From: Scenedesmus sp. PABB004
Taxonomy: Eukaryota
DNA length: 64,000 bases
Reading direction: 5' to 3'
Assembly: GCA_014905635.1 (NCBI GenBank)
Contig: JABVCE010000011.1
Span: 558,001-622,000, forward strand
Below the pieces are notes generated by a model, which saw only the letters and a program-made list of their open reading frames with translations, was not told the origin of the DNA and did not search any database. Below are positions 3,001 to 48,200 of the stretch, in pieces. Within the stretch, counting starts at the first letter, position 1. Each line of letters opens with the position of its first letter. Position numbers and translations under genes: made by a program.

Positions 3001-4214
3001 GGCGGCTACTGCCGGGTGTTTGACACACTCAACCAGGGCGCAAAGTACGCCGAGGACAGGTGAGCGCCGCGGCCTGCACGGCACTGCGGCTCCGCGCGCG
3101 CCGGCGGGAGCTGGCCGGCGGCGAGGCGGCGGCCCCGCACCCGCGCGCCGCGGCGGCCGCCGGCCCTGCCAACCCCGCGCCCGCGCTGCGCGCCGCGCAG
3201 GCTGCTCGCGATGGCGCAGGCGGCGGGGCTGCTGCGCCAGGGGCTGACCGGGCTGGACCTGCGGCAGTTCTTCGAGATGCACTGCAGCCAGGCGCTGCTG
3301 ACCGCGGGCGTCGACGCGGCGCGCATCACGGCCGAGGTCGCCAAGCTCGGCGTGCCGCGGTCGCTGTCGCCGGGGCAGCGCCTCTTCAGCTTTGGCGAGG
3401 AGCCCAACAGCTTCTACCTCATACTCAAGGTCAGTCGAGGGTTTAGGGCTGTCAAGGACAAAGCCTTGTCAAACTGACAGAGGCAGTCAGCCACTTCAGT
3501 TCTAGTTCCAGACATCAGCCTCGGCCCAGACCGACCGAGAGAGGGAGGGAGGGAGGGACCCTCGCTCCCTCCCCAGCTCGGCCGAGGGACCCCGCGCGCT
3601 GCGCCGGTCCGCCGCGCCGCGCCCCACCCGCCCGCACGCCCCACCCGCCCGCGCGCCCCCACCCGCCCGCGCGCCGCCCGCCCCGTGCCACGCGCGCAGG
3701 GCGTGGTGAGCATCGAGGTCAAGCCGCTCGCCGTGCCGGCGGTCGGCTTCCGCCCCGCGCCGGCGCAGCTCGACACGCTCGAGGTGGAGCGCGACTTCAG
3801 CAGCGGCCAGGGCGCGGTCGTGGGCATCACAGACTTTGTGCTCAACCGCCTGCGCTCCTTCCAGGCCGTCACGAGCAGCGAGTGCGTGCTGCTCGAGGTC
3901 TCGCGCCCGGCGCTCGAGGCGATGGTCGCCGAGGTGCCCGCCGTCGCGACGGCGCTGCAGGTGCGCCGCTGCGGCGCGGCGGCGCGGCGCGCGCCGCCGC
4001 CCGCCGACGGGCCGCGCGCGCCGCCGCGCGGCCGGGGCTGCGGCGGCTCGCGCGGCTCCGGCCGGGCGCGCCGCGCGGTCGGCCGGCCGCCGACGACGCG
4101 GCCCCGCGCCGCCGCCGCCGCCGCCGCCGCCGCGCGCAGGCCATCCTGCTGCGCGACGCCTGCCTGAGCGAGGTGTATGCCTACGAGGTCCTCGAGCGCG
4201 CGGCGCGGGCGTGA
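13..4214 (+). CDS. SulP/SLC26-family anion (sulfate) transporter with STAS and C-terminal cNMP-binding domains; 5' end lies upstream of window
   Basis: Spliced exons ~13-81, 251-348, 473-582, 737-831, 1018-1143, 1376-1420, 1569-1679, 2023-2227, 2393-2513, 2647-2819, 2927-3059, 3201-3429, 3700-3960, 4140-4214 keep one frame. Motifs: 'GYTGSYIFSQT', TM helices, STAS 'GFMFFGS' and 'ILDFRRVLGVDATA', cNMP-like 'LFSFGEEPNSFYLILKGVV...GAVVGITDF'. Confidence 0.85.
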
Positions 4215-12577: not shown

Positions 12578-13493
12578 GGCCGCGGGCGGGCGGCAGGGGC
12601 GGCGCGCATGCGCGCCCGGCCACCCGTGTGCCGCAGCGCGCGCGGCGCGGGCGCGGCGGCGCGCCCGGGCTGCGCGCGGCGGAGGGCGTGATGCATCCCT
12701 TGAGTTGGGCCCGCGTGCGGAACGCGGCGCGGGGCGGGGCCCGAGCAGCGAAGAAGGCAGGCAGCGCGGGCGCCGCCGGCCGCGGAGGCCGCGCGCGCGC
12801 GCGCGCGCGCCTTGCGCGAGGGCAGTTTTGGGTCGGTCGGTCAAACGGCCGCACGTTGTTGGCGTTGTCTGTCACGCGGGCGAGGGCGCGGGGGCGAGGG
12901 TTCCCTGGCCCTGCCCCGCCGGCGCCCGGGCCGCCGTCCCTCTCGACGGCGGCGCGCGTCTGAGACTCGGCGGCTGAAGGCCCGGAACGGCCCGCAGCAC
13001 TTGAATGCGCTGGTTCTCCTCATTTGCTACTAGACTCGACACCACCGGGGGCGTGACGGGTGGCGGCGGCGGCGGCGCGGCCCGCTCGCCCGCGCGCGCA
13101 GCGCGCACGTGTTGGGGGGCGGCGACTCGCCGGCTGCTGCGCGCGCGCGCGGGCGCGCGGGCGCGCCGTTTTGATGCGGACGCGCGCCACTGGCGGGGGT
13201 AACACGCGCAGCTCCCTCTTAGATCTCGTTCACACATGCCCGCGTTGACGAGTCCGACAGCTCGCAGCTGCTGCGCCGTCACGAGTGGTCCAGCGCGGTC
13301 TCCTCGCCCCGCGCCGCGTTAGTCGCATCTACTCCCACCTTTCTGCCACACGGAGCCCCCCGCCCGGCCCCCACACGCCCCGCTGCGCGCGGCCGCCGCG
13401 CTCCTCATCCTCGGCGACGCTCGCGCTCTCGGGCTCTTATAGCGCCCGCAGCGCCTCCACGCGACGCCCGGACCGGCGTGGCAGCCTCCCAGC

Positions 13494-16400
13494 ATGGCGC
13501 AGCCTCGCCCCGGATCGCCGTTTGCGATCCGGCCGGCCGCGCCGCCGCCGCCGCGCACGGCTGAGGAGGAGGCCCAGGAGCGCGCGGAGGCCCAGGAGCG
13601 CGCGGAGGCCCAGGAGCGTGCGGAGCGGTCGCAACTCGACGCCGCGTACCTCGCGGCCGAGCGCCGGGCGAGCTGCGAGGCGCACGGCATCACCTGCTAC
13701 AGCGCGCCCCCCGAGCTGTCGCGCAGCGCGAGCGCCGACCGCAGCGCGGCCGCCCTCGCGGCGGCCCCGGGCGCGGCCGACGTAGAGGGCGCGGGCGGCG
13801 GCGGCGGGCACCTGGAGCCGCTCGCGGGCGACGTCTCGCACCTGGAGCTGCTCGTGCTGAGCTTCGACAACCTCTCCATATGGGCGCCCGTCAACCCCAA
13901 GAAGGCCAACCCGCTCCACGCCGCGTGGCGGCGCTGCACGAGCGGCGGCGCCGCGACCGCCAATCCGGGTGCGTGCTGACCGCCGCGTTGACCGCCGCGT
14001 TGACCGCCGCGCGGGCCGCCGCATCGACCGACCGCGCGCCCGCGCCGTGCAGAGCGGCAGATCCTGTTCTCCGTGTCGGGCGCGGTGCGTCCCGGCGAGG
14101 TGCTGGCCTTCTTTGGGCCCTCTGGCAGCGGCAAAACCACGCTTCTCACGCTCCTCGGCGGGCGCAGCGCCATGAAGTTTGCCGGCAGCGGTGCGGCGGG
14201 ACCCCTGCCCGCGCGCCCCGCGAGCGCCGCGCGCCGCCGGGCGCCGCACCGCGCGCCGCCGGGCGCCGCGGCGGCCGTCCACGCGCGCGCGGCGCACGAC
14301 GGCCGCCGCGCGCGGCCGCCGCAGCGAGCGTGAACGGCGCGCCCTACAGCAAGGCCACGCGGCGGCGCATCGGGTTTGTCCTGCAAGACGACGTGCTCTT
14401 TGAGGCGCTCACCGTGCAGGTGCTCGTGGCGCGCGCGCGCCGGCAGGGCTCCGGCCCTCCTCGCCCGCCACTGCTTCCATAGCTGCCGCAGCGCGCCGAG
14501 CCCTGCAAGCGCCGCCGCGGGCTTTGCGCGCGCGGCGGGGCTGCCCGCCGCCCCCCCCCCCCCCCCCCGGCCGGCGAGCTCGGGCGGCGGCCGACGGCCC
14601 CCTGCGCCGCCGCGCCGCCCTGGCCGCGCTCGCAGGAGACCCTGACCTATGCGGCGCTGCTGCGCCTGCCGTCGGGCATGCCGCGCGCCGCCAAACTCGC
14701 GCGCGTGGACCGGATCGTCGCCGCGCTCGGCCTGCGCAAGAGCGCCAACACCATCATCGGTGCGGCGCGCGGCGGCCGTGGCGGCGCGCGGGCTGCCCGC
14801 CGTGCTGTGCTGGGTGGAGGCGCCGTGCGTCTGCGGCGCGCCCACGCCGCGCCGCCGCCGCGCCGCCGCCGCCGCGCAGGCGGCTTCTTCCGGCGCGGCA
14901 TCAGCGGCGGCGAGCGCAAGCGCGTCAGCATCGGTGCGGCGCCCGCGCCCGCGCCCTGCCAGCACGCGCCGCACGCGCCGCAACCGGCTCACGGCTGCCG
15001 CGCGCCGCCGCGCACGTGCCCGCCAGGCCACGAGCTGCTGATCAACCCCTCGATCCTGCTGCTGGACGAGCCCACGTCCGGCCTCGACTCGACCACCGCA
15101 CTGCACCTCATCACGCTGCTGCAGGTGCGACCACCACCACCTCCTCCAGCGCGCGCGCGCGCCGGCGCTGCCTCTGCCTCTGCCCCTGCCTGCGCGCGCT
15201 GGCGCCGCCGGGCGCTGCGGTGCGCCGGGGGCCGCCGCGCGCGCGGGCCTCGCGGCAAGCCTTTGCCGCCACGGCGCAGGACCTCGCGGCTGCCGGGCGC
15301 TCCGTCGCGACGACCATCCACCAGCCCAGCAGGCGTGCCGCCGCGCGCCGCGCCGGCCCGCACCTGCCGGCCGCGCGCACTCCCGCGCCCGCGCCCCTGC
15401 GTGCCAGCACCCGGCTCGCGAGGTCCCCCGCCCCTCCGCCGCCCCGCCGCGCCGCAGCCGGCTGTACCAGAAGCTCGACACCGCCATGCTCCTGGCGGAC
15501 GGCCACGTCATGTACTACGGCAAGGCCCACGAGGTGGTTGCCGCTGCCGCGCCCGCGTGCCCGCGCGCGCCCGCACGCACAAACGCACATGCGGCCTGCG
15601 GCGGCCGGCGCGCGTGCACACATTCAAATGTGTGAATTCACACGCGCCTCGCCCCCGCCGCGCCGCGCAGGCGCTGGCGTGGTTTGCGCGCTTCGGCTAC
15701 GCCCTGCCCGGCGGCGTGAGCACGCCCGACTTCCTGCTCGACCTGGCCATGGGCGAGGCGGGCTACTCGTCCAGCGGCGCGACCGGGCCGGCGGCGGTGC
15801 GCGAGCTCTGGGCCGCGTTCGAGGCGCACGCCGCCGCCGGCGGCACCAACGGCGACCGCGGCGCCGCGCCGCCGGCGAGCGCGCCCGGCGGCGCCGGCGC
15901 CAGCGCGGCGGGTAGCGACGGCGGCAGCAGCAGCCCCAGTGGCGGCGGGGCCAACAGCTGGGACCTGGCGATCGCGACGAGCGAGACCAACGTGCTGCCC
16001 TCGCCGACGGCGGCGTCCACGCCGCGCAAGCCGGCGCCCGGGGTCGGCGGCGTCGCCGCGCCCGCGGCGGCCGGCGCCCGCGGCGGCGGCAAGCAGCAGC
16101 GCCCCGCGCGCGAGGGCGCCACGTACCTGGACCAGCTGCACGTGCTCGCCGCGGTGCGGCGCGCGGCGCGCGCGGGCCAGTCCGCGCGGCGCGCGCGAGC
16201 CCGTCGGCCTGCGCCGCGCGCTCCTGCCCGCGCGCCTCACGCCCGCGCGCCCTCGCCGCCGTGCTGCCGCGCAGCGCTCGGGGCGCGTGCGGCGCTTTGA
16301 GCAGATGACGGGTCAGCACTTTTTCCAGCTGCTCGCCGTCGCCTTCATCACAGGTGAGCACGGCAGGGCGCCCGCGCTGCCGCTGCCAGGGAGGCCCCGC

Positions 16401-28638: not shown

Positions 28639-31600
28639 TCACCGCCGCTCCGCAACGCGCGCGGCAGCCGGCTCCCGCCCGCGCGGCGACGGCGGTGCCT
28701 TGGGGGCGCCCGCACTGGCGGGCCCGTCGCCGCCGGCGCTGATGTCGACGCCGCTGCTGGGCGGCTCCGCGCTCCCGGCGCTGCGCAGCTCGTACGCGGC
28801 GCTGCTGCCGGGGCTGCTCAGCACGCGCGAGCTCGCCGGCGCGCTGGGCACCGCGCTGAGCGCGGCCGAGCTGAGCTGGCCGCTGCCCGCCAGCGCGCCG
28901 GGCGCAGGCGGGTCCAAGCTCTTGAAGCTACCGTCCCGCGCGACGGCGATCTGCAGGCTGCCACGCAGCGAGCCTGCGCCCGCGTGCCCCGCGCCTGGGC
29001 CGGCGCCCGCGCCGCCGGCGAGCGCGGCCGCGCCGAGCGACGAACCCGCGCTGACCATGCCCGCCGGGCAGCCGCGCCCCGCCGGCGCCGCCGCGCCCGC
29101 CGGGCCGCTGCCGTCGCTGCCGCTCACAGCGCTGGCCACCGCCACCGACGCCTCCGGCGTGCCCAGCCAGCCGCCGGGCGGGGCCGCCTGAGGGTCGGCG
29201 AGGTCAGAAAAGTCGTATGCCAGGGCAAAGGGTGACGCTCGCGCGCCGACGGGGCTGCCCACGCCGCCCAGGCCGGCCAGGGCCGCCGCCCCGCTGGTGC
29301 CGCCGGGCCCGCCCGGCTGCGGCGCCTGCTCCGCGATAGGCGGCGGCTGCGACAGCGCGCTGCGCTGCCTGCCGCTGCCGCCGCCGCCGCCGCTGCTGCC
29401 GTGGCGCAGCACACGGCCGTGCGCGGCGGCTGCGGCGGCCGCGGCCGCCGCCGCGCCCGCCCCCACGCCCGCCGCGGCGGCGGCGCCCGGCGGAGCGGGC
29501 TCGCCGCCGTCGTCGTCGTCGCCCTGCTCCCAGCGCACTGCGCTCGTGACCGAGTCGCCCAGCTCCTTCAGCGCCGGACGCAGCTGGTCGTAGCTGTCGC
29601 CCGCGGCCGCGGGCGCCGCGTCGGCGCCGGCGCGCGCGCCCTCCTCGGCGCCGCCGGCCGCGGCGCTGCAGCCCGCCGGCGCCGCGCCGGCGGCCGCGGG
29701 GTCCTGGGGCTCCGGCAGCAGGTAGCGCTTCTTGCCGCCCTGCCGGCGGCGGCGGCTGGGCTGGCTGCTGTCGGGCGTGGTCGAGCCACTGCCCTGCTTC
29801 TGCGCCGCCGCCGGGGCGGGGTGGCGCCTGCGGTGCAGGCGCAGCAGCGCGTACACGACGCCGCCGACCGCCGCCCCAAACGCGGCCGCCATGCCGATCG
29901 CGATCCCGGCGACGCGGCCCGGCGTCCAGTAGGTCGCGCCGCCGTGCTCCCGCGCGGGCTGCGCGCGCGGGCAGGCGCGGGCGTGCGGTGAGGGCGCGCG
30001 TGCGCGTGCGGCGGGGGAGCAGCGCGCCGTGCGGCCGCGCCGGCGGCGCCGCCGGCGCCGGCGGCGGCGCACCGCGTCGACCAGAATCTCGGGCGTGCGC
30101 AGCCACTTGATGAGAGCATACTCGCCCAGCTTGGCCGCCGCGCCCGACGCGAGCAGGCCCGCCTGCACCGCCGCGGGCTGCGCGAGCCACGCCGCGAGCG
30201 CGTGGTCGACGCCCGCGCTCGCCTGCGCGTCGGTCACGCCGACCGCGAGCCGGATGCTCAGGGAGACCTGCGCGGCGCGGCGGCGCGGGGGGGGGCGGGC
30301 GGGGGCTCGGCGCCAGGGCTTGGCGGGCGGCCGCGCGGCGGCGGCGGCGGCGGCGCGGCGGGGTTGGGGCGCCCCCTAAACCCCAGGCGTCGGCCGCACC
30401 ATGGGCTTTGCGGCGACGCGCTGGGTGTAGGCGGTGTCGTTGATGCGGAGCCCCGCGGCCTGCAGCCCCTGCTGCGTCGCGACGCCGCAGGGCGTGCCCG
30501 TGACGTCGGCCCCGACCGCCCAGCCGCCGCCGCCGCACGAGGCGTTGAGCGCGCCGAGCAGCGCCGAGACGTTGCCGGGCACGAGCTGGGTGAAGACGAC
30601 CCACACGGGCGTGAGGCCCTGCAGCGTGCCCGCGCGCGCGCCCGGCGGCGCCTGCAGCAGGCGCCGCGGCGCGCCCTTGCCCTGCGCGGCGCCGGCGCCG
30701 CCGCCGCCGCCGCTGCTGGTGCGTGTGAGGTTGCGCTCGGTCACGTTTGAGGTGCCGCTCGCGTTCCACCTGGCCGGCGGCAGGCCGTAGTCGGGCGCCT
30801 CAAAGAGCACTGGGAGAACGGGGCGGCCCCGCGCGCAAAGACGCAGCGTCAGCGGCGGCGGCGGCGGCGCGGCCTCGTCGGCGGCGCGCCGCACCGCGTG
30901 CTACTCGCCCGCGCCCGCGCGCCCGCGCGCCCGCGCAGCGCCGCCCCGCGGCGCGCCGCACCGGTGATGAGCTGCGGGTCGTAGCCGCCCGCCGCCTGCG
31001 CCGCGACGCGGCGGATGACGGCGCTCACCGTCGCGTCCCAGTAGCCCGCATGCTTGGGCACCCAGACCAGCAGGTCGCGCGGGAGGATGCCGTCAAACGC
31101 AAAGCCCAGCGTCACCTGGCCGCAGCGGCGGCGCGGCGGCGGCGCGGCGGCGGCGCGGCGCACGGCTGGGCGGGGGGCGCGGGCGCGCCGCCGCGCGCGG
31201 CGCGGCGCGCGGCGCGGCGCCCGTTGGCGGCTAGGCGTGCGCGGCGCGCGCACGTTGGCGGTCGCGTTGACGACGACCTGCCCCGGCTGCATCTGGGCGA
31301 TGGAGCTGACTGCCTCGGTCCAGCCGCGCACCGCGGCCTCGGTAAGGAGCTCTGGCGACGAAAAGTTGCTGACCGACCACGCCGTGACCACCCAGCGCGT
31401 GACCTGCGCGGCCGCGGGCGCGCGCGTCGCGGGCGGGCGCGCGCGTCGCGGCCGGCCGCGCGGGCGGCGGCCGCGGCCGCGTCCAGCGCCCGCAGCTGGC
31501 GCGCCTGCAGCCCCGGCGTGGGCGGCGCCGTCGTGGGCTCGACAAACGTGGTGTGGTTGGTCGTGTACACGTAACTCACACGGGGCACCGCCGCGAGGCT

Positions 31601-33081: not shown

Positions 33082-34188
33082 TCAGCACGCCGCGGCCTGC
33101 GCGCTGCGCTGCTTGATCAGCGCGCGCAGCCGGGCGCGCATGCTCTTGGAGCTGGCCTGCGCCAGCAGCGCGCTCAGGCTGTCCACCATCATTCGGTCGC
33201 GGCACGGCGCGGCACCGCCGTCGGCGCTGCCGGCGCTCGCGCCGTCGTCCGCCGCGCTGCAGTCGTCGCTGGCCGCGGGGCGCTGGCGCTTGGCCGGGCG
33301 CTGCGGCGCTGGCGGCGTGGCGGCGCCGCCTGCCGGCCCGTCGCTGTCGGGCGTCGCGGGCGCCGCGGGCGCCGCCGCCGTGGCGGCGCCGCCCTCCACG
33401 CCGAGCGCCAGCTCTCGCTCAAACAGGTCGTCCGGGAGCAGCAGGCCGTCGGCCGCGAGCGCGCGCGTGAAGGCGTGGTCGACGGCAGCGAGCGCGCTCC
33501 AGTCGCCCGGGCACGCGGCGCTCTCCGGCAGCGCAGACTGCTGGCCCAGCAGCTCGCTGAGCTGCGCGCCGTCGAGCAAGCGGGCGGGCTCCGGCGTGCC
33601 GCGCGGCGCGCTCGGCAGCGACGCCGCGGGGTCGCAGCCCCTGCGGGCCAGCCCGCCGAGCCCGCCATGCGCGGCGCCGGCGTAGGCCCCCGGGCCGGGC
33701 GTCAGCAGCTCGCCCAGCGGGGGCCCCGGCGTCGCAGACGCAGCGCCCACAGCCGCCCAGGCATACGCGGGCGCTGCGTGGCCGTAGTGCGCGCCGAGCG
33801 CGCTGCCCGGCGCCAGCGCCGCCGCGTCCGGGGCGGCGGCTGCGCACGCCCAGCTCGCCGGCTGCCGCTCGTGGTGCGCGCCGAGTGCTGCCAGCGCGCT
33901 CACCGCGCCCAGGCAGCCCAGAAGGGCGTCCTGCGCCTGGTCCGCCGCGCGGCGCAGCTCGTCCACGCTGCGGGCGCACGCCGCGGTCGCCTCCCGCACC
34001 GCCACCTCCGCCGCCGACCACGCGCCGAGCTGCTGCTTGGGCTGGACCAGCAGCAGCCGCTGCTCCATGAGCGCCAGCTGGGATCGGAGCGCCCGGTTTT
34101 CCGCCGCCAGCTGCGCGGCCTGAGCAGCAGTCGACGCGCCGGCCAGCTCGAGCTCCCCGCCCCACGCGCTGGCCGGCCACGACTGCAT
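33082..34188 (-). CDS. Hypothetical protein with N-terminal coiled coil
   Basis: Open frame from ATG 34188: 'AQLAAENRALRSQLALMEQRLL...SVDELRRAADQAQDALL'; C-terminal helix 'VDSLSALLAQASSKSMRARLRALIKQ'. Start uncertain. Confidence 0.45.
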   Translation of the reverse strand: MQSWPASAWGGELELAGASTAAQAAQLAAENRALRSQLALMEQRLLLVQPKQQLGAWSAAEVAVREATAACARSVDELRRAADQAQDALLGCLGAVSALAALGAHHERQPASWACAAAAPDAAALAPGSALGAHYGHAAPAYAWAAVGAASATPGPPLGELLTPGPGAYAGAAHGGLGGLARRGCDPAASLPSAPRGTPEPARLLDGAQLSELLGQQSALPESAACPGDWSALAAVDHAFTRALAADGLLLPDDLFERELALGVEGGAATAAAPAAPATPDSDGPAGGAATPPAPQRPAKRQRPAASDDCSAADDGASAGSADGGAAPCRDRMMVDSLSALLAQASSKSMRARLRALIKQRSAQAAAC

Positions 34189-34985
34189 GTTAAGCGTTAA
34201 ACGACCTGGGAGCCTACGAGTCACCTGGACGGCGCGGGGCGCACGGTGGGCGTCAGGCGGCGCGCCGCGCGCCTTCCGCGCTCTTCTAGCTCTGCTTTTG
34301 CCCGTGAAAAGCGGCCGCCGCGGCGGCCGCGGCACGTGATGCTGCTACCGGGGGTCCCCAAACACGACCTCTCACCAGATCACGCGCGGCTGCACCGGAT
34401 CGAGCGGCCGGTGTCACCGAGCGGGGGCGGTCGCGCCCTGTACTGTGTGCGCGGTGGCGCCGCTCCGGCCACGGACGCGTGAGAGAGGCTGGCTACGAGC
34501 GTGTGGCGGCTCGCCAGGCCCGCCCGTGCGGGGACAGGACGCTGGGACCGCGGCAAGCGCCCGTAGGGTTCGCCGCGCCCGCCCGCCGACCCCGCCGCCC
34601 ACGTGCTTGACTGATCGCAGCACCGGCGATCGCTCGGGGCGCCGCGCAGATTGGGCGGCGGCGGAATCAGCGCGCACAGCCGCCGTCACCATTACGGCGC
34701 GCGCGGCGAAGTGCCGCCGCGAACGCTGGCTGCCGCGCAGTGCAGGCCTGGGCAGTGGGCGCCGCGCCGATCGCGCTCTCCTAGGATTGGTCTCATTACC
34801 GGCGGCGGCTCGGCATGCCGCGGCTCGGCGTTCATCCCGACCGCGCTGATACTCTCGCACAGCAGCGCAGCGCCGGGACCGCATGCGCCGGCGCCGCTGC
34901 ACACCTGGCCACCAGTTTTAAAAAGGGGAGGGCGTCAATGCGATGTGGTTTGAAACGGGAAAGAATGTTTTCGACCGGCCGCCGC

Positions 34986-37900
34986 TCACGGCGCGGGCGC
35001 GCAGGTGCCCTCCAAGGCCGACCAGACGCCGCCGGCCTCGCAGGAGGAGACCGGCGTGCCAACAAACCCGGGCTCGCAGTCGACGTTGCACACGCCGCCG
35101 ACGGACGTGACGCCGGTGCTGCAGCTGCCAATCCAGGTGCCGTTGGCAGGCGGCGGCGGCAGCTTGGAGCTGAGGCAGCCTGCGGCGGCGGCGGCGGCGG
35201 CGCAGTCAGGCGCGAGGGGCGGCGCCGGGCTGCGCGGCAGGCGGCCTGGCGGGCGCGGCGCGGCCGCGGCGTTGCGCCGCCCACCTGCGGTGCAGCCGCC
35301 GACAACCTCGCCCCAGATGCCGCCGGCCTCGCACAGCGCGGCAGGCTTGCCGAAGAATCCGGCGTTGCAGGTGGCGGTGCAGTTGGCGCCGACGGCGGTG
35401 CTCGCTCCGCACGCAAACGTGCCGTTGCCGACCTTCCCGGGGCTGCCAGGGCAGGCTGCGCGCGGAGGAGGAGGAGGAGAGGAGGCGGGGGCACAGCAGC
35501 ACAGCAGCAGGCACGTCAAGCGGTGCACGTGCCCGCGTGCGCTCAGCCCGCAGCCTGCGCGCGGCACGCATGCCGCGCCGCGCCGCGCCGCGCCGCGCCG
35601 CGCACGCACTTGAGACCGCCTTGACGCACTTGCCCACGAGCTGGCCCCACTTGCCGTCCGAGCCGCAGCGCGACCAGGGCCCGGTGGCGTTGTAGCTCAG
35701 GTCGTCGGTGCTGTCGAACACAAAGCCCGCCGCGCAGGCCGCCGAGCACTCGCCCGCGACGGGCGTGCTCGCGCCGCAGCTGAACGCGCCGTTCTCGGGG
35801 TTGGGGGGGCTGCCGGTGCACGCTGCGCGTGGGGGGGGGGGGGGAGGAGCGGCGGTTCAGCGGCAGGGCGCGGGCGCGCGGTGGGTGGGTGGTGGTGTGT
35901 GTGTGTGGGGGGGGGGGGGGCAGGGTTGGCGCGGCGGCTCGGCGCCCGCCCGCCCGCCTCACCAGTGGTGGACGAGACGCAGGTGCCCGTCACCGCGCCC
36001 CACTTGCTGTCCGCGCCGCACGTGGCCTTCGGCGAGCCAGAGAAGCCGGGCTTGCAGCTGGCCACGCACTCCAGGTTGGCCTGCGTGAAGGGGCCGCACT
36101 CAAAGTCGCCGTTGGCAGGCTTTGGCGGGTTGCCCGTGCAGCCTGCGCGCGAGGCGGCAGGCGGCCGTCAGGGCCGCGTGCAGCGTCAGCGCCGCGAGCG
36201 CCCCTCGCGTGCAGGCCGCGCGGCCCGGGGCCGCGAGCGCCAGCACTGGCGGGGCGCCTCCCGTGCGCGCGGGGCGGCGGCGCGCACACGCACCTGGCGG
36301 CAGCTTCACGCATTCGCCCGAGACGTCCGCAAACTTGTCCGGGCCGGTGCAGACGGTGAAGGGGACGCCGGTGTAGCCGTTGTCGCACTTGGCGGAGCAC
36401 ACGGTGCCGGTGCGGACGTCCTTGCAGGTGGTCTCCCAGCGCGAGTTGGGGGGCGCCGCCGGCAGCTCGCCGCTGACGCAGCCCTCGACGCACTCGCCCA
36501 CCACGCCGCTCCACTCGCCGGCGCGGCACTCAATCAGCGGCGTGCCCACCGGGTCGCCGAAGAACGACCTGCGCGGCGCGGCGGCGGCGCGGGCAGGGGT
36601 CAGGCGGGCCTGCCTGCCGGCGCGCTCCGCGCAGCGCGCCCGGCCGGGACGGCGGCGCCTGCTCACGGGTTGCAGGTGCCGTTGCAGTTGCTGCCGTGCG
36701 GGGTCGACGCGCCGCAGTTGAACACGCCATTCTTGAGGGCGGGCGGCGCATCCGTGCAGGCTGCGGCGGGCAGCTGCGGTGAGCGCGGGCTGCAGCGCGC
36801 CGCGCGCCGCGGACGCCGCTGCGGCCCGGGCATGCGGTCGCGCGCGCGCGCGCGCCGCCTCACGTGCGGTGGACAGACGGCAGGTGCCCTTCAGGCTGCT
36901 GGCCACCCACGCGCCGTCGGTGCCGCAGGTGATGGTGGGCCCGCCGACAAAGCCGAAGCCACACTCCGCCTTGCAGGTCCCGCCCGACGCCACGTTGTTG
37001 CACTGAGCCAGCGGCCAGGTGCTGTTGCCCGGCGCCTCCGGCAGCTCCTGGGCGTTGCAGCCTGCGTGCGTGGCGGCGGCGCACGCAGCGGCCGCTCAGC
37101 TTGGGGCGGCCGCGCGCGAGAGAGAGAGCGCGCGAGAGCAGTCATATGGCTGCTCAGGGGATGCATCCCCTGTCACGCTGCGCTCGCCGCACCGCGGACG
37201 CAGTTGCCCTTGACGGGGCCCCAGGTGCCGTCGGCCTGGCAGACAGAGGTGGGCGTGCCGACGGCGTTCTCGTTGCACGCGGCGGTGCAGTTTGCGCCGA
37301 TCGCCGAGCTCGCGGCGCACGAGAAGTTGCCGTTTGCCGGCTGGGGCGGGTTGCCGGCGCAGACTGCGAACGCGGCGTCCGGGCGGCGTCGGCGACGCGC
37401 GGCAGCGGCGTCTGCTGAGCATGCGCCGCGCACGCCTCGCGCGGCGCGGCGCGCCCACATGTGATTTCGCAGTTGCCCACCACCGGCGACCACGTGCCGC
37501 CGGTGCAGGCCGTGAAGAACTGTCCCGCGCCGTTGCCCGCGCAGTTGGCCGTGCAGGTGCCGCCGATGGGGGTGTAGCGGCAGGTGCTCGGCCATGAGTT
37601 GCCGGCGGGCGGGTCGGGGATCGCCCCAAACAGGCACACTGCGGCGGCGAAGGCGGTCGCAGGTGCGGCAGGCGCGGCGGCGGCGGCGGCGGCGGCGGCT
37701 TGGGCGGCGGCGGCGGGGCGGCCGCGGCGCCGGGGAGTCCTCCGCCCGCCGCGCCGGCGCTCACCCCACTGCGTCCACATCTCTTCGTTGAAGGGGCGCA
37801 CGCTGGGCGTGCCCTGGAAGGGCTTGACGCCGTAGCAGACGCCCCACGCGGCGCCCTCGGGCGTGGTGGTCGTCTGCACCCCCGCCTCCACGCCCTTGGT

Positions 37901-38704
37901 CGCGGAGCAGTTGCCGCCCGGGTAGGCGAGCACCGGGAGGCCCTCGGGGCTCAGGTCGGCGGTGTAGCCCCAGGTGCACCAGTCGGCGCCGGCGCTGAGC
38001 GCGCCCTTCATCTGCTCGACGGTCGCGAGCACCGTGCCGGCGGTGACGTTGCGGCACGCGTCGGCCGCCTCGGCCATGCTCTCAAAGCGCGTGGTCAGGG
38101 CGTAGACCTCGGGGATGTTGGACGAGGCGGCCGCTGCGCGCGGAGCGGCGTGGGCGACGCGCGGCCGGCTGCCGCTGGCCGGGCCCGGCGGTGCGCGGCC
38201 AGGCGCGCTGCGCGCTGCGCGCCGCGTGCTGCGCACCCGTGCGGCACTTCTTCGCGGCGGCGGAGAATACGTAGCCCCGCTTGCAGGTGCACTTGCGGTT
38301 CTTGCCCGTCCCGAGCACGACCGAGTGCGCGGGGCAGCAGTCCCGGGTCTTGGGCACGAGCGCGGTGTCCTTGTTGCACACGCACTTGCCGCCCTTCTTC
38401 TTCGCGTTCAGGCCGCAGCCCTTCGGCTGGGCTGCGGGCGGGCAGCGCGGCGCGCCGGCGGGTCGGCGCCGGGCTGCCCGGCTCGCGCGCTCGCTCGCTC
38501 ACAGCAGCGTGGACCGCGGGCGCGCCGCGCCGGCGGCGACGGGGCAGGCGGCACTGCCCCAGCCCCCGCCGGTCGCCGGCGGGCTGCACCGCGCCGCAGC
38601 CTGGCGCTGCCGCCGCGGCCCACGCACGCACCCGCTGCGCCGCCCAGAGCCAGCAGAAGCAGCAGCGCGCCCGTCAGCAGCAGCTTCGGGGCGCGGGGCG
38701 CCAT
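34986..38704 (-). CDS. Secreted Cys-rich protein: signal peptide, EGF-like Cys region, Link (Xlink)-like module and nine 6-Cys sushi/CCP-like repeats
   Basis: Signal 'MAPRAPKLLLTGALLLLLALGGAA'. Link-like exon 38133-37765 'EAADAC...LATVEQMKGALSAGADWCTWGY...YP..C...VCYGVKP'. Repeats of pattern C..PP.P.NG.F.C.....G..C.A.C..GF.G.P...C...G.W....G.C; no TM segment. Confidence 0.8.
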
Positions 38705-39205: not shown

Positions 39206-42200
39206 ATGGAGCCGCTCAGGGCTCTGTCGTTGCTGGCGGCGCTGCTGCTGGTCGGCAGCGCCAGCGCGCAGAGCGTGGCCGAGGGTGCGTGGCGAGCATC
39301 AGCCGGCGCGCCGGGGGCCCGCCGGCCGGGCGGCCCGGGCGGCTGCGGGGCGTGATCAGGGGCGTTCATGCCACCCCGCGCCCCGCAGCCGGCCTGGGCG
39401 CCGGGCAGGGCCACAGCAGCGCGCCGCCGGTGACCGCGGCGACGCTTCGCCGTTCTCTGTGGCGGGCGGCCTGCGCCGCCTGCCCCGCGCCCGGCTGACC
39501 CCGCTGCCGCGCCCGCGCGCCCGCAGTCACCGCCGCGAGCCTGCCGCGCACGACCGCCGCGCCGCGCGCGACGGCGACGCCCGCCAACACCACCAGCAAG
39601 GAGAGCTGCTTCGGCTTCCTGGAGGCGTTCGTGCCCGCGGGCGACGCCGGGCGGGTAGTTAACGTGGAGGGCACCTTTGCGGGCCTGCCCGTCGCCTTCA
39701 CGCTTACCTACGACGAGCCCAACGGCGTCACCTGCAGCATCGACGCGTGGGCGATGGAGGCGACCAACGTAAACGTGCAGGGCGCGGTCAAGAGCATGTG
39801 GGCCGACCCGCCCGCGTGGCTCAGCTCCGCGCTGGAGACGGTCTCCTTCCCCCGCCTCGCCTCGCGCCGCGTCCCGGGTGCGGCGCCGCGCGGCGACGCG
39901 CGCCGGCGCCGCGCCACGCGGGCGCCGCGCCGGCGCAGCCAGCCCGCGCCGGTGCCGCGCCGACGCCGCCTGCCCGCGCACCCCGCCCGCCCGCCCGGCC
40001 GCGGCCGCGCAGCGACGTCGCCCGGCGTGCTGTTCATTGAGGCCGACACCGTCATCGCGGGGCGCCCGGTCAACTTCCGCGCCGCGCTGACCGACCCGCT
40101 GGGCCTGCGCCTGCTCGCGGTGCAGCTCGCGCAGACCCTCGACCTGCAGACCGTGCTCGCCGACGCAGGGTTCACCAGCCCCGTCGACCTGAACGACATG
40201 TTCGTCCTCCAAAACCCTGGGCTCACGTACGTCCGCAACGGCGCCTTCACCGACTCTGACGGCACGCAGCGCTCGCCCGGCCTCTACCTCAGCATGGGCC
40301 TCGCGATGCCCAAGTTCGGTCTGCCCATGACCAACGTCTCCTTCCCGGTGCGCCTGCCGTCGTCCATCTCCATCCCCACGCCCGGCATCCCCGAGGTCAC
40401 GGTGCCGGTGCCAGAGATCAACGTCAAGGTGCGCCGCGCACGCCGCCCCCGCGCCGCCCCGCGCCGCACTGCGCCGCGATATGAGCCCGTGCTTGAGCGG
40501 CCTTAACCCTAAACCCATAACCTAAGCCGTCCTCCCGCCCCTGCGCTCCCGCTCCCGGTCCTGCCCTAAAACCCCAAACCCTGCCAACCCACCTGCCAGT
40601 GGACGAGCAAGATCGACGCGGCCAAGTACCTCGAGATCAACGAGCTCGACGTCACGGTCAAGCGCCTCGGCGACGACAAGTTCCTGGTGGGTGCCTGGGC
40701 GCTGCGGCCGCGCGCGCGTTGGCAGCGCGTTGGCAGCGCAGCGGGGCAGCCGCGGCGCGGCCGGCGCAGCGGGGAAGCCAGCCAGCCGCGGCGCGCACCC
40801 GCCGCCGCGGCGCGCGCCCGCTGACCCGCGCGCTGCGCCGCTCGCCGTGCTTCGCAGAGCGCGGCGGGCAAGGCCAAGGTCGCCGGCGTGCCGGTGGAGA
40901 CGGTCTTCCGCCTGCAGAGCGGCAACTACTCGTTTAGCGCGCGCGCCGGGGTGAGGGAGGGACCCAGCCGCCAGCGGCGCGGCAGGGCAGGGCCGCCGCG
41001 GCAGGGCTTAGCGCGGCCGTGGCTGGCGCGCCGCGGGCGCGCGGCGCCCGCTCAACTCACTGACTCCCCCGCGCGCCGCGCCCGCGCCCGCGCCCGCGCG
41101 CGCAGCCGACGCCGGCCGCGCCGATCGTGGAGCGGCTGTGGCCGGTGGCCGGCGGCCCGCCCGCGACCTTCACCAACGCGCTGAGCGACGTCACGCTCGA
41201 CATCCGCTACGACAAAGGTGCGCCCCGCGCCCCGCGCCCCGCGCCCCGCGCCCCGCGCCCCCTCCGCTGCTGAGATGGCCTGGGCTGCGCCGGCGCCCCC
41301 GCCCGCCGCGCCGCCGCGCCGCCGTGCCGCCGCGCGCCGCCCGCTGGCCTGAAACCTTAACCCCCCGCCTCACCGCCGCTGCCCAGGCCTGCTCTACCTC
41401 GCGGCCAACTCAACCGAGGGCAGCAAGTTCCGTGCCATCACCAACCAGGAGAGCAGCCTGCGCCTGCTCGAGGCCAACCTCGCCTCGACCGGCACGCTCG
41501 GCCAGATCATCAACGGCCTCGGCGTCTCCAGCTTCCCCGAGACGAGCGCCGAGGTCGTGAGCTTCACCAACCCCGCGTTCCAATACATCTTCGGCGGCCA
41601 GGGTGCGCGCCGCCGCCGCGATCTGCTGCCGCTCCTCCCTGCCGCCGCCGGCCGCCCCTGGCTGCCGCCGCGCGCGCGCCTCGCTGCCGCCGCGCCCCGC
41701 CCACATGCGCCTGCCGCGCCCACTCAAACGCAGAGTTCACGTGGGAGGGCGTCGCGTACAAGCCAGGCCTGTTCTTCAACGTCGAGCTCACCGTCCCCTC
41801 GCTCAACGTGACCAAGGCGCCGTTCACGATGACCGTCGATCGCAACGGCTCCACCACCACGAGCGCCAAGCTCGAGGTGCGGCACGCGGCCCCGCGCGCG
41901 GCCCCCGCGCACCGCGCAGCCGGGCGCGCGGCGCCGTGCCGCGCTGCGCGGCCGGGCGCCGCCGCCGACGCGAGCGCCCCGCCGTCCCCGCCGCCCCCGC
42001 CGTCGCCGCGCCGCGCAGTGGGCCGGCACCGCCACCGTCGCGGAGGGCGTCACCGTGTCCAACATCAGCCTCAGCGCCGCGCGCGGCGTCGGCTTGGTGC
42101 GCCGCCCGCCCCCCGCCCCACGCCCGCCCGCCCCGCGCGCGCCCGCCAGCCCCACGCGCCGCTGCCGGCGCTTCGCGCACCGGCCCCGCGCGCGCGCGCG

Positions 42201-45200
42201 CCCACGCGGCCCCCGGCCTGTCCGGCCCGCCCCGCGCGCGCGCAGGCCGCGACGGGCAAGGCCTCCGTGTATGACGTGCCCGTGGAGGCGTCGATCCTGC
42301 TGTACAACCGCTCCACCTACACCTTCAACGCCGTCTCCGCGGTGAGCGGCCCGCGACCAGGCCGCGCTGGCCGCGCACGCCGCGCCCCCGCCCCGCCGGC
42401 GCCACGCGCCGTGTTCTTGCGGCAGCGCCCGGCTTACACCGCCGCGCCCTGCTCACGCCGCACACTGTTCAGCCCTACCCGGCCGGTGAGATCGTGAAGA
42501 AGATCTGGCCCGGCAGCACGCCGCCGCCGATCGTGACAAACTCCATCGGCGACATCTCGCTCAACATCACCTTCAACAGCGGTGCGGCCGGCGCCCGCGC
42601 CGCGGCGCGCAGAACCCGGCCTGCGCTCGCTGCCGCCGGGCGGGCGCCGGCCGCGCGCGCGCGCGCGCCCCGCGCCGCCCGCCCCGACGCCCGGCGCCGC
42701 CTGCCCGCCGCCGGTGCACGCAGGCCAACTCTCGATCGTCGGCCTCGGCAGCGCGGGGTCGAGCTTCCGCGTCATCACCAGCGAGAACACGCGGCCGCGG
42801 CTGCTGCAGGCCAACCTCGTCGGCACGGGCAACCTGGGGCAGGTCATCAACGGCCTGGGCATCGACTTCCCGGCGGCCAGCGCCGACGTCGTCACGTTTG
42901 CCAACCCCGCGTTCTACTACACCTTTGGCGGCCAGGGTGCGTGGCGCGGCGGGGCGCTGAGGGCTCAGGCTTGAGGGTTGATGAGGGCTCAGGGGTCAGG
43001 GTTCAGGGGTCTGGGTCGAGACGCCGCGCCGCGCGCGCCCCGACGTGCAAGCCCCGACCCTGGCCGCTCACTCGCGCCGCGCCGCCCTCCCGTGTGCTCC
43101 CCTGCCTGTCCCCGCCCGCCTCCCCCGCGACTGCTCAGAGTTCACCTGGAACGAGGTCGTCTACAAGCCGGGCCTCGTGTTCAGCGTCAACCTAACCGTC
43201 CCGGCGCTCAACATCGCCGACGCGCCGTTCACCATGACCGTCAACCGCAACGGCTCCACCACCACCAGCGCCGTGCTCGAGGTGCGGCGGCGCGCTGCGC
43301 CGCCACCCCCGCCGCGCGGCGGGCGGCGGCCCCTGTGAAGCAAGCCCCGGCTGCACGCGCGCGCCCGCCGCGCCCACGTCCGCCGCCGACTGACACCCCG
43401 CCGCGCCGCGCCGCACCGTTCCGCGCGCGCGCAGTGGACGGGCAAGTCGGTCGTCGTGCCCGACGTCGTGGAGATCACCACTGCCGGCTTCCAGGCCGCG
43501 CGCGGCGGCGGCCTGGTGCGCCCGCGCGCCCGCGCCCGGGCCCGCGCCCGGGCCCGCGCGGCCCACCACCTGCCCGCCCGCGCACGCCCACGCTGCGCCC
43601 GCCCCGCCACAGACCGCCATCGCCAAGGCCACCGTGTACGACATCCCCGTCGAGGCGTCGTTCAACTTCCACAACCGCAGCGTCATCTTCACCGCCGCCT
43701 CGGCGGTGCGCGGCCGCGCGCGCGCGCGCCGCGCGCGCGCGCGCGCCGCCGCCGCCGGGCCTCTTGACTTGACACCCCCCAACCCTTAAACCGCACGCCG
43801 CCGCCGCCGCCGCCGCCGCCGCACTGCTCAGCCCTACCCCGCGGCGTCAATTGTGAAGAAGATCTGGCCCACCGCCACGCCGCCGCCGATCGTGACGAGC
43901 GCGGTCGGCAACGTGTCGTTCAACATCAACTACACCCGCGGTGCGCAAGGGGCTGACAGGGCAGCGGCGCGCGGCGCGGGAGGGCAGCAGCCAGCGGGGC
44001 GCGCCGCGGCGGCACCGACGGCGGCGCGCGCGCGCACACACGCTGACGCGCCCCGCCGACTGACGCGCCCCGCCGGCTGCGTCGCGCCCGCACAGGCCAC
44101 CTCTCGATCGCCGCGGCCGGCAGCGCGGGGTCGGGCTTCCGCGTCGTCACGAACGAGGCGACGCGGCCGCGCCTGTTCCAGGTCAACCTGGTGACGAGCC
44201 AGAGCCTGGCCGATATCCTGCAGGGCCTCGGCGCCTCGTTCTCCGTCCCCACAGACATGCTCACGTTCAGTGACCCCTCCCTGCAGTACGTCTTTGGCGG
44301 CCAGGGTGCGTGCGCGTGAACACTGCGCGCCGCGCCCCGCATGCCGCTCGCCGCGCGCCGCGTCGCGCCGGCGGCGGCGGCTGTGGTGCGGGGCCCCCGC
44401 TCGCTCGCTCACGCGCCCGCCCACGCGCGCCGCGCAGCGTTCACGTACGAGGGCGTGTCGTACCCGCCCGGCGCGGAGCTCAAGGTGCTGCTGACCATTC
44501 CCTCCATCGACGTCACGCGCGCGCCGTTCACCATACTCATTTCCTCGAGCGAGAGCCAGGCGATCGGCAACGTCACCCTCGACGTGAGGGTCTCTCACCG
44601 CTGGCGGCGCGGCGGCGCGCGCCGCGGCGCCGTGCTGGCTCACACAGAACTGGGGCAAGCCGCGCCGCGCCGCGCCGCCGCCTGCTCCTCCGCGCGCGCC
44701 CACGGCCCCGCCCCGGCCCGCGCCGCGCCGCTGCGCCGGCACACTGCGCAGTTCTCCGGCAGCATCGTCGTCGCGCGCTACCTGAACATCTCACGCATGA
44801 GCCTCGTCGGCGCGCGCGGCGTCGGCCTCGTCGCGAGCAGCAGCGGCACGATCGCCGGCACGCCCGTCAGCGTGGCGCTCACGCTCGCGACGCAGGCCGC
44901 GCAGGCCGCGGGCGCGGCCGCGGTCTCGGTCACGGCCACCGCCAGGGTGCGGCGCGCGCGCCGCCGGCCGCCCGCCCGCCCGCCCGCCCTGCACCCCCGC
45001 GCCCCACATGGCGGGCCCAGCAAGCCCCAGCCCTCACCCCTGCGCCCTCACCCCTGCGCCCTCACCCCTCCGCCCTGGCCCCCGCGCCTTTTGCCCCTCC
45101 GCCGCCCCCGCCCCTGCGCGCAGGACGTCAACATCGGCACCATCGTCTCCACCGTCTTCCCCGCGACGCCCGAGGTCGTGCGCGGGCTGCTCGGCCGCGT

Positions 45201-48200
45201 GCGCTTCGACGAGCTCGTGCTCAACTTCAACTCCAAGCAGCTCCGCTTCTCCATTGGTGGCGTGCCCAACCTCGGCGGCGTCCCCGAGCTGCGCAAGGTG
45301 CTGGAGTTCCTGCAGCTCGGCGCCGACGCAATCAAGCTCAAAACCCTCGAGAGCGGCGGCCTCGACCTGGCCATCGAGAAGATGTGGACCTTCAACCCCG
45401 GCCGCCCCTTCACGGGCCCCGCGACCGCGGGCTTCTCCCTCGGCGTCTCCTCCGACGCGACCGGCTTCACGACCACGCTCGCCGGCAAGTTTGCGGGCCA
45501 GCTGCGCGTGGACATCTTCGAGAACCCGCTGGTCAACGTCGCCTGCGAGGTGCGCCACGCGAGCGGCCGCCGGGCTCACGCGTGCTGTTCACGGGCCGCC
45601 GGGGCCGCTCCGCGCGTCCGCCGACCCCGCCCCCGCCCACGCGCGCACCCCCTCCCCTCCCCCTCTGCCCGCCCGCAGGCGGGCGTGTCGTTCGCGCCCG
45701 CCACGACGACGTTCCGCCTCGGCGTGAGCTTTGTCGGCGACATGCAGATCAAGGGCTTCCCCTTCCTCAAGCTCCGCGTGCTCAACGGCAGCATCGGCGT
45801 CAACCCGAGCCCCCTCTCCGTCACGTCCGCGTCGCTCCGCGTCGACGGCAAGCTCGTCAACACCAACATCGCGACCACGCTCGTGTACGAGGCCGCCAAG
45901 GGCGTGTTTGGGTTCCGCGTCACCGTTGACAACTTCAGCCTGCAGGACACGCTCGCCGCGCTCGGCATCAACGTCAACCTCGGCATCAGCAACATCCAGA
46001 TCTCAAACGCCGTCGTCGCGTACGCGACGACCGACATCAGCGCCGAGCTCAAGCAGGGCCTGCGCGTCGCGGGGCAGTTCCAGCTGTTCGGCATCCGCGG
46101 GTCTGTCAACTTTGGCATGGACCGGGACGGCATGGACCTCGCCGGCAGCCTCAACTTCGCCGAGGCGCGGCGCGCCGGCACAGCGCGCCGCGCGGGCCGC
46201 GGGCCGCGGGCCGCGCCGCGCGCTCGCCCATGGGCGCCGCACCCTGCCCGCGCCCCTGAGGGCCGCTGGGCTCATAAAACCTCGCCGCCCCGCCGCCCCG
46301 CGCCGCCTCCCTCCTCCGCAGAAAATGATCGACACGTACAACAAGATCGACAGCGCCCTCAAGGCGTGAGTACCTAGCAGCGCCGCGCGCCCGCCGCCAC
46401 CGCGCCGCCGCCGCTGGCTCCGGCCACACCTCCCGCGCCCTGTGGTCACGCACCACGCCTGCTGACGCGTCCGCTCCTGCCGCCGCCCGCACCACGCGCT
46501 GCTTCATCTCCCCCGCGCGCAGCGTCGGCATCAACCTCGGCGCGATCGGCATCCGCCTGCAGGACATCTTCCTGGTCGAGACGTTCAGCATCGACCTCGT
46601 CCTGCGCAGCGCGACGGTGCGGCGCCGGCGCACCTCACCACGCCCCCCCGGGGCCCCTGGCCCGGCCGCCAGGCTCAACCTGGGCGGGCCTCTGACCCCG
46701 CGCGCCGCGCGCCGCGGTCCGGGGACTCACCGCGCCGCCGCGGCCGCCGCACGCCGCGCCGCACGCTCGCCGCCGCGCAGAAGCGCTTTGCGGCGAGCAT
46801 CTCGTTCGTGGTGCTCAAGAATAAGCTGAGCTTTGGCTTCTCCATCGACGCGGGCAACGTCAACTTCTTCGCCGACGCGATCGCGGCCGAGGCAAAGCGC
46901 TTCTTCACCGGTTAGCTTGCGCTCGCTGATGCCGCCGCCATGTTGTGTGCCGCGCCACGCCGCCGCTGCCGCCGCCGCCGCCACACCGCCACCACCACAC
47001 CGCCGCACCCTCACGCGCGCCGCGCCGCCGCGCCGCCGGATCGCAGCCGCGTGCACGCGCGACTCGTACGACCGCGGCGTCGGCCGCATCCCCACGGGCT
47101 GCCCCGACGGCCAGGAGAACTTCAGCGGGCTCTGCTACCCCAAGTGCACCCAGAACTGGCAGTACGGCGTGTACGGCAAGGACAACCGCTGCTACCAGGT
47201 GCGAGCGCGCGCGCTGCGCGACTGGTCCCCCAAACCCTGAACGGCAAGGGGGGTCGGCGGGAGCGCTGCGGGGTCTGGGGGTGCGATGCGCCGCGCTGAC
47301 GCGCCGTCACGTGCCCGCAGAACTGCCCGCCGGGGTGGAACGACGATGACCCGGTCGGCAAGCGCGGTGAGCCGCGCGGCGCGCGTGGGGCAAGGGTTGA
47401 GGGTTTGGGCTCGGTCCCTAAACCTGCCAGCCGCCGGTCACCGCCGCCGCCCGCCGCCGCCCGCGCCACGCGCCGCAGGCCTGAGCTGCTCCATCCTGCA
47501 GTGCGACCCCGGGTGGACGCTCAAGGGCCTGCTCTGCTACAAGAACTGCGACCCCGGGTGGTCCAGCGACGGCCTGGCGGTCTGCTACGAAAACGTGCGT
47601 GGCGCGGCGGCGGCGCCCAGCGCCTGGCGCCCGCGGCGCCTGCGGCGGCGGCCGCCGCGCCCCCGGCGCGCGCGCCCGCCCCTGAGCGCCCGCGCCCGCC
47701 CTGAGCGCCCGCCCCGCCCGCCCGCCCGCCCGCCCGCCCGCCCGGCTGGGACCCCCGCAGTGCCCCGCCGGCTGGGACTACGTGCTGCTCAACTGCCAGC
47801 GCTGGGCGTGCAACGCCGACGAGGACGTGAGCGCCAGCGCGCTCGCCCGGCTCGCGCCACGAGTGGCCCTGTGCGCGCGCCGCCCCTGACCCGCGCGCGG
47901 CCCCGTGTTGCGCGCGCGCGCCCGCCCCGCAGGACAACGGCTGGGGCTTGTGCTACCCCAAGTGCCGCGCCGGCTTCCGCAGCGACGGCGCCAACCTCTG
48001 CCTCGGCGGCTGCGCGCCCGACTACTCGACGCTGCCCCTCACGTGCTTCCGCCACCACAGCGTGAGCGCCCGCGCCGCCGCCGCCGCCAACAGCGCCGGT
48101 GTCCGGCGCGCGCGCGGCCGCCCACCCGCGTGCGCGGCCGCCCACCCGCCCCGCCCCGCCCTGCCCCGCCCCTCGTCCATCCGCGCGCGCAGCTCTACTG

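Follow-up and report, generated by a model that had tools for sequence, protein, structure and literature searches.

An extended Link module of a giant-virus-type subfamily on Sushi-repeat proteins of the green alga Scenedesmus sp. PABB004

We analysed a stretch of 64,000 nucleotides (hereafter the window; positions 558,001–622,000 of contig JABVCE010000011.1) from the genome of the green alga Scenedesmus sp. PABB004. One exon of a gene in this window, at 37765–38133 on the minus strand, encodes a genuine Link (Xlink) module with four conserved cysteines and a predicted C-type-lectin-like fold. The module belongs to an extended, tail-bearing Link subfamily whose other members come mostly from giant viruses (Nucleocytoviricota), and its kinship with the viral members is solid. 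We consider it probable that the module crossed between a giant virus and the algal lineage, in one direction or the other, and that it now forms part of a secreted protein in which it is joined to Sushi (CCP) repeats.

Link modules are usually regarded as an animal invention tied to hyaluronan, and giant viruses and algae are well known to exchange genes. Link domains have been annotated in giant viruses before; the novelty is modest and consists in a tail-bearing Link subfamily common to giant viruses and a chlorophyte, and in a Link module residing as a symmetric phase 1-1 exon within a Sushi-repeat gene family of three paralogs. As one more case of virus–alga domain exchange the finding is of moderate weight, and it offers a concrete example of such an exchange at the level of a single domain.

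A Link module encoded by one exon

The exon ends exactly at an AG acceptor on one side and at a GTGAGC donor on the other and, as read off the flanking bases, is of phase 1-1. Because it begins and ends inside split codons, the frame-1 translation of its coordinates is one base off and shows stops; the stop-free peptide of 124 amino acids (P0001, AAASSNIPEVYALTTRFESMAEAADACRNVTAGTVLATVEQMKGALSAGADWCTWGYTADLSPEGLPVLAYPGGNCSATKGVEAGVQTTTTPEGAAWGVCYGVKPFQGTPSVRPFNEEMWTQWG) is the translation of window positions 37763–38134, minus strand, and contains all letters quoted in the initial annotation, a model-made description of the window based on its letters alone. The exon, third of its gene, provides residues 90–212 of a 770-aa product, ‘Svep1 [Scenedesmus sp. 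PABB004]’ (P0003), which a protein-database search found to be 100% identical over the Link exon and whose gene is located on a 1.28-Mb contig. It carries the four cysteines, the motifs GADWC and CYGVKP and the tail VRPFNEEMWTQW. In P0003 as a whole, a signal-peptide-like N-terminus is followed by a module with eight cysteines (8-Cys), a single Link module and some ten Sushi/CCP repeats.

A second Link exon occupies 61996–62376 on the plus strand, in the gene for the paralog P0005 (1306 aa). It also starts and ends within split codons, the introns of the two genes occupy identical positions, and its 128-aa peptide (P0002, translated from window positions 61995–62378, plus strand) is 49% identical to P0001 (63/128, E 1e-35). 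With P0001 as the query, tblastn against the window recovered these two Link copies only, plus one match at E 9.8. A third paralog, P0007 (KAF8059394.1, also ‘Svep1’), came from the protein databases and is encoded on a separate 737-kb contig. The three ‘Svep1’ paralogs found for this strain are 49–60% identical in their Link parts.

Both exon products score above the gathering score of 27 of Pfam Xlink (PF00193), P0001 with 33.9 bits (E 3.7e-8) and P0002 with 29.5 bits (E 9.2e-7). Scored as whole proteins, P0003 reaches 28.6, and P0005 (23.1) and P0007 (22.8) both fall under the cut-off. Among PDB sequences the best phmmer match was the lectican aggrecan (G1, E 1.9e-6), with CD44 at about 7e-3; a family profile of 55 rows retrieved aggrecan G1 at 3e-38, TSG-6 at 6.8e-17, and LYVE-1 and CD44 at about 1e-10 to 1e-12. 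C27, C53, C76 and C100 of P0001 fall in the four invariant Cys columns of the family alignment A3, and the family profile aligns them with C23, C47, C68 and C92 of TSG-6, the positions of the two Link disulfides.

The AlphaFold2 model computed from the family alignment has a mean pLDDT of 83.4 and a pTM of 0.80, with 90–94 pLDDT in the tail. In a Foldseek search of the PDB with this model, ranks 1–21 were all Link modules (CD44, aggrecan G1, TSG-6, LYVE-1), and snake-venom C-type lectin-like proteins followed. VIA-align gave Z scores of 7.8–10.5 for the top 15 Link entries (LYVE-1 10.5, TSG-6 10.5, aggrecan 10.3, CD44 8.4), against 7.6 at most for non-Link C-type lectin folds. The initial annotation had read this exon as a Link module and 61996–62376 as its matching copy; both readings are borne out, by Pfam, the profile matches in the PDB and the predicted fold for the former, and by identity and Xlink score for the latter.

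Matches of PDB Link modules to the family profile end at the last Cys-Tyr, and for this reason we regard the tail ‘G.KP...PFN..KWS’ as a C-terminal extension specific to the subfamily. The canonical module of TSG-6 (about 95 aa) has the four cysteines and, by the model, the core fold in common with the algal one (rmsd 2.4 over 86 residues) but is without a tail: the VIA alignments span model residues 9–104 with TSG-6, compared with 8/9–124 for LYVE-1 and CD44. The latter two appear from the model to share with the alga both the fold and a C-terminal extension past the canonical module, yet they are only 18–26% identical to it, no similarity of the tails was detected in sequence, where the profile match ends as described, and they are, unlike the algal protein, animal membrane receptors for hyaluronan.

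A subfamily found mainly in giant viruses

Relatives were collected with HMMER, using a profile of the two window paralogs against 1.84 billion representative proteins. This yielded 241 relatives at E≤1e-3 and 37 at E≤1e-10; besides the query’s own protein, the top three were the alga’s paralogs and one unnamed protein. A Pfam scan covered 146 of 150 listed relatives out of the 241 (P0003 had been scanned earlier, and P0095, P0098 and P0110 were omitted as very long). Xlink was detected in 83/83 of those scanned at E≤1e-3 and in 63/63 at E≤1e-5, with 78/83 and 61/63, respectively, over the gathering score. Many relatives are small proteins of 150–200 aa made up of an N-terminal hydrophobic anchor and a single Link module, and large ones fuse Link to Tectonin, F5/8 type C, Ricin B, Laminin G, PAN, WSC, collagen or phage tail-collar domains. 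Sushi repeats occur, among the non-animal relatives scanned, only in the three Scenedesmus proteins. The giant-virus and metagenomic Link proteins of the collected set (proteins P0008–P0153 and loci L008–L085) make up a lectin toolkit, with membrane-anchored proteins of up to 5118 aa and one to five Link modules, and with RCC1, fn3 and TSP1 as further partner domains.

The subfamily, which has no existing name, was defined from alignments A3 and A5 by the motif C[YFW]GxKP right after the last cysteine and by the tail PF[NS]..W[ST]. The consensus of 29 small members (EVF..Y.Y..A..AC..GA.LAT..QL..A..AGADWC..GW..D...YP....GCG..G.....AGA.CYG.KP...T..V.PFN..KWS.Y) is fitted by the algal domains from end to end. 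The family HMM delimited 324 domains in 246 sequences, and the 286 distinct domains covering at least 70 model positions were kept for the motif counts and for trees. C[YFW]GxKP is present in 68/71 IMG/VR viral, 162/203 metagenomic and 3/3 Scenedesmus domains, and in 0/9 animal lecticans; the tail, scored by one regular expression, in 16/71, 107/203, 3/3 and 0/9, respectively. Model position 110 of 117 is reached by 243/324 domains, and lectican domains end at positions 94–99.

Viral contigs in IMG/VR were scanned with the algal profile, with a mixed profile and with a profile of eight small members (alignment A4). With the algal profile, two loci belonging to a single virus were recovered (35% identity), where densely packed open reading frames (ORFs) free of introns encode a Ras-family GTPase, an E2 enzyme, an AAA ATPase and an endo/exonuclease. 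Three distinct viruses were found with the mixed profile, and 133/164 pattern matches of the eight-member profile encode relatives. We kept 78 IMG/VR loci, on contigs of up to 466 kb, 25 of which bear the names of giant-virus metagenome-assembled genomes (GVMAG). One contig (that of locus L008) was searched for major-capsid genes of nucleocytoplasmic large DNA viruses and gave eight matches, the best at E 2.2e-55. The ESM Atlas clusters around the small member P0040 are labelled ‘Extracellular link domain-containing protein’, with Viruses at 100% and Nucleocytoviricota as the group, and the best fold match of the algal model in BFVD is a Tupanvirus protein (‘putative neurocan core protein’, A0A6N1NY79; E 1.3e-4), a likeness that depends on the prediction. 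The initial annotation had likened the ‘GADWC..G’ and ‘CYG.KP...PFN..W’ variant to giant-virus Link proteins, and the viral contigs, the capsid-bearing one among them, the Atlas clusters and the motif counts now substantiate that likeness.

Viral Link proteins are also on record in the literature. The virion proteome of PkV RF02, a virus of haptophytes, includes a Link-domain protein, ORF195, in its ‘virus entry’ category (PMC11953307), a Pfam Xlink gene is reported for the dinoflagellate virus PelV-1 (PMC12338748), and a survey counts Xlink entries from viruses (12), bacteria (15) and archaea (1) and discusses Tupanvirus matches (PMC12383584). The giant-virus extracellular link proteins (ORF195, PelV1_042 of PelV-1, the Tupanvirus protein and the GVMAG and IMG/VR ORFs) resemble the algal module at 30–38% identity and have in common with it the four cysteines, G[AS]xWC, C[YFW]GxKP, the tail PF[NS]..W[ST] and the side of the tree. 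They differ in context: they are mostly anchored in the membrane at the N-terminus, either as small single-Link or as large multidomain proteins, whereas the alga has a signal-peptide-like N-terminus, and they are without its Sushi repeats and 8-Cys module. No Pfam family covers the 8-Cys module, an HMM of it matched none of about 180 other collected proteins or the viral ORFs, and an HMM of the algal Sushi repeats likewise matched no other protein of the set and no viral ORF. It is the Link module alone, then, that is common to the alga and the virus-type proteins.

Of cellular sources with a name, only Scenedesmus sp. PABB004 and one tardigrade appeared among 30 of the 150 listed relatives checked for names; the rest of the 30 came from metagenome or SRA assemblies and bore no name or the label ‘hypothetical protein’. 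The distribution is thus only weakly indicated as virus-rich and cell-poor, many algal genomes being unannotated. The tardigrade protein (P0123, XP_055330775.1, Paramacrobiotus metropolitanus) is an astacin protease whose Link module aligns to the algal profile up to and including the tail (positions 6–125 of the profile, E 2.6e-6); judged by its sequence, it is one more scattered instance of the viral-type module in a cellular organism. P0073, a GC-rich fragment of 215 aa from a JGI metagenome, has a Scenedesmus-like ‘WGYT’ Link module and continues ...NVWNAAGER... right after the tail, much as the window frame reads WTQWGER through the GTGAGC donor; P0073 could thus stem from another cellular gene with introns. 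A metagenome scan with P0073 gave only locus L086, which was rejected as a false positive on a bacterial-looking contig without a Link domain.

Other searches added little. A metagenome pattern scan with the three algal domains gave 598 pattern matches and no relative, and one narrow pattern run over 185,579 prokaryote species genomes gave 34 pattern matches and no relative. A length-matched protein search with P0001 found nothing at near lengths and only its own protein at longer ones; at longer lengths, alignment A3 gave seven matches, one named ‘Extracellular link domain’ and the others ‘hypothetical protein’ or unnamed. The ESM Atlas search with P0001 provided no usable lead. Full-text literature searches found no report of Link modules in green algae, and the main text of an S. 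obliquus cell-wall proteome study (PMC11839794) contains none of the terms ‘Svep1’, ‘Sushi’ and ‘link domain’.

Phylogeny and origin of the module

Three trees were computed: a FastTree of all 286 rows, a quick IQ-TREE run on 91 rows and a careful one on 41 hand-picked rows. In the 91-row set, the remaining rows were every fifth leaf after five long-branch rows had been dropped, two of which re-entered with the sister clade. Animals are represented by 5–9 lectican domains only, which served as the outgroup. The three algal domains form one clade with support of 99 (286 rows), 99 (91 rows) and 100/96 (41 rows), and the split between lecticans and all other rows has support of 99 in the FastTree, 91 in the quick and 96/86 in the careful tree. 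When rooted on the lecticans, the three trees agree in placing the algal clade inside a mixed viral/metagenomic group, and the deepest non-animal branches of the 91- and 41-row trees are IMG/VR rows. Nearest to the algal clade is a 174-aa protein, P0031 (97/87, careful tree). The pattern is not that of vertical inheritance across Chlorophyta without viral neighbours: viral rows neighbour the algal clade, which lies on their side of the tree and apart from the lecticans.

Several points weigh against an exchange with giant viruses as we read it. The alignment has only 122–128 columns, and most inner and deep branches are unsupported. An approximately unbiased (AU) test on the 41 rows retains a topology in which the 32 viral/metagenomic rows form a clade excluding Scenedesmus and P0031, a constraint that costs a delta lnL of 6.4 (p 0.33). 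Most relatives are unnamed metagenomic proteins, some of which may be cellular, P0031 and the GC-rich P0073 are of unassigned origin, and capsid genes were checked on a single viral contig. Since an algal clade outside the viral radiation is not rejected by the AU test, the transfer may have run either way. The virus–host transfer suggested by the initial annotation is supported as an exchange, given the shared subfamily and the side of the tree. We regard movement from virus to alga as somewhat likelier and movement from host to virus as less likely though possible, other explanations making up the remainder.

Whatever the direction, the algal genes are cellular genes carrying the module and not viral genes, as their introns, host GC, Sushi repeats and signal-peptide-like N-terminus attest. 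The GC content at third codon positions (GC3) of the Link exon is 0.98, compared with 0.86–0.98 in the other exons, and the overall GC content of the window (74–82%) agrees with the 78.5% published for the PABB004 genome (PMC12571836). The Link-Sushi genes are settled nuclear genes, neither a recent viral insert nor a contaminant. Any transfer would have to be old, because GC3 is host-like, introns are present, the layout is one exon per domain and three diverged paralogs exist.

In the scenario that we favour, the Link module alone would have passed between a giant virus and the lineage of the alga, more likely from virus to alga; as a phase 1-1 exon it would then have been combined with Sushi exons of the host, and duplication of the resulting gene would later have given the three paralogs. 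The chief alternative, to which we assign a lower though appreciable probability, is that the extended Link is a domain of long standing in cells (algal or protist) that reached Scenedesmus by vertical descent and was lost or is unannotated elsewhere; giant viruses would have captured it from such hosts, and it would have radiated in them. The constrained topology retained by the AU test, with Scenedesmus and P0031 outside all viral/metagenomic rows, speaks for such a history, as do the host-like GC3, introns and exon-per-domain layout of the algal genes, the divergence of their Link parts and the read-through in P0073 that hints at a second cellular copy. Against it stand the shortage of named cellular sources beside abundant viral contigs, the IMG/VR rows on the deepest non-animal branches of the rooted trees, and the lack of any report of green-algal Link modules in the full-text searches.

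It is very improbable that the module has nothing to do with viruses, whether as a separate remnant of the animal-type Link family or as an acquisition from animals or bacteria. Its similarity to vertebrate Link modules is significant in sequence and fold, and Link and Sushi domains co-occur, as in the alga, in the lecticans and HAPLN (aggrecan, versican, neurocan, brevican), which are secreted matrix proteins. Lecticans, although the best sequence match in the PDB, form a separate clade, have neither the C[YFW]GxKP motif nor the tail in any of the nine domains, and end well before the algal module does. Their architecture differs as well: P0130 and P0135 begin with a V-set Ig domain and tandem Link pairs and end with EGF, C-type lectin and one CCP domain, whereas the alga has one Link and about ten CCPs and neither a V-set Ig domain nor a tandem Link pair. 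The prokaryote scan mentioned above, made with its one narrow pattern, is a weak further argument against a bacterial source.

Contamination, mis-assembly or a mis-predicted gene is scarcely credible: ‘Svep1’ is an automatic gene label, which would fit such an artefact, but the 1.28-Mb contig of the P0003 record, the agreement of window and genome GC, GT-AG introns and the GC3 range of the coding exons speak against it, as does the presence of a third copy on the 737-kb contig in addition to the two of the window.

Architecture of the algal genes and possible ligands

Mapped on the window, P0003 is encoded by 12 exons at 34989–38704 on the minus strand, mostly with one domain per exon. Exon 1 (38633–38704) contains the start codon and the signal-peptide-like N-terminus MAPRAPKLLLTGALLLLLALGGAA, which matches the P0003 mapping exactly and was judged as a signal peptide by eye. 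Exon 2 (38238–38432) encodes the 8-Cys module (CGLN...C.C...DCC...C.C..GY.F....C) and is followed by the Link exon. Exon 4 (37460–37639) holds the first Sushi/CCP-like repeat (VCLFGAIPDPP...GNCEIT), and exons 5–12 (34989–37361) the further Sushi/CCP repeats up to the stop codon, according to the P0003 mapping and Pfam. Sushi (PF00084) was detected in P0003 at E 1.7e-14 in seven stretches; at E 0.1 the only Pfam families were Sushi and Xlink, the latter in one stretch, and an Ig family was absent. No hydrophobic anchor was seen at the C-terminus on inspection by eye.

In the second gene, on the plus strand, exons 1–2 at 61493–61882 encode the signal-peptide-like N-terminus and the 8-Cys module (61688–61882) of P0005. 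Its Sushi-repeat exons lie at 62497–64000, and the gene extends past the end of the window. The 8-Cys pattern common to all three paralogs is CGLN..G.C.C....DCC......G....C.C..G..FS....C. Codons are split at most exon boundaries in both window genes. A layout of one domain per exon, with the same introns in paralogs, is what exon shuffling would be expected to produce, by analogy with animal matrix proteins.

The shared name invites comparison with SVEP1, which has multiple Sushi repeats in common with the algal proteins. SVEP1 lacks a Link module and has vWA, EGF, HYR and pentraxin domains in addition. Pfam shows only Sushi and Xlink in P0003, and the name is an automatic best-hit label that gives no sign of orthology.

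As to function, the protein would be secreted by way of its signal peptide, presenting an N-terminal Link module on a chain of Sushi/CCP repeats. The Link head may bind a polysaccharide or other glycan of the algal wall, the matrix or another surface, and the CCP string could act as a stalk or as an interaction scaffold. Hyaluronan itself is an improbable ligand. Eight residues of TSG-6 are given as hyaluronan contacts in PMC3937638 (Lys11, Tyr12, His45, Tyr59, Lys63, Phe70, Tyr78 and Arg81). At seven of these positions P0001 has T15, R16, D51, L66, A70, A78 and T89, with 0/7 identical; Arg81 falls in an insertion, and no P0001 counterpart was mapped. The viral consensus keeps a Tyr at the positions of Tyr12 and Tyr59 and an aromatic residue at that of Tyr78, and the alga lacks the former two tyrosines. 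As the contact residues are not conserved, the ligand is probably not hyaluronan, and binding of hyaluronan in the manner of TSG-6 is unlikely on the sequence comparison. The alignment of these contacts is itself tentative, as it partly crosses loops of pLDDT 60–75.

A bolder idea, which we think unlikely, is that the alga domesticated a giant-virus attachment module, so that its secreted Link-CCP proteins would bind the same host-surface glycan as virion Link proteins. They might thereby defend the cell by masking the receptor or acting as decoys, in the way that captured retroviral env genes block receptors, or else serve in cell–cell adhesion of the coenobium; the three diverged paralogs with altered ligand-contact residues might then reflect an arms race. 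Independently of this, the algal module could be an entry point to the glycan recognised by viral surface Link proteins, of which one is found in PkV RF02 virions (PMC11953307).

Near the Link genes, eight long ORFs have a coding-like composition, with GC3 of 0.90–0.94 and GC at second codon positions of 0.59–0.65. They are situated at 3064–3474, 11747–12199, 13443–13976, 30379–30900, 33085–34344, 39499–40503, 42985–43335 and 44320–46374. None matched a Pfam family at E≤1e-3, and the neighbourhood is therefore uninformative on viral insertion. Within the first gene, the intron that follows the Link exon (37660–37720) holds a run of GGC/GCC triplets (gcggcggcggcggcggcggc). Its open frame reads as poly-Ala across this interval, so that in this genome of 78% GC stop-to-stop ORFs pass through the intron.

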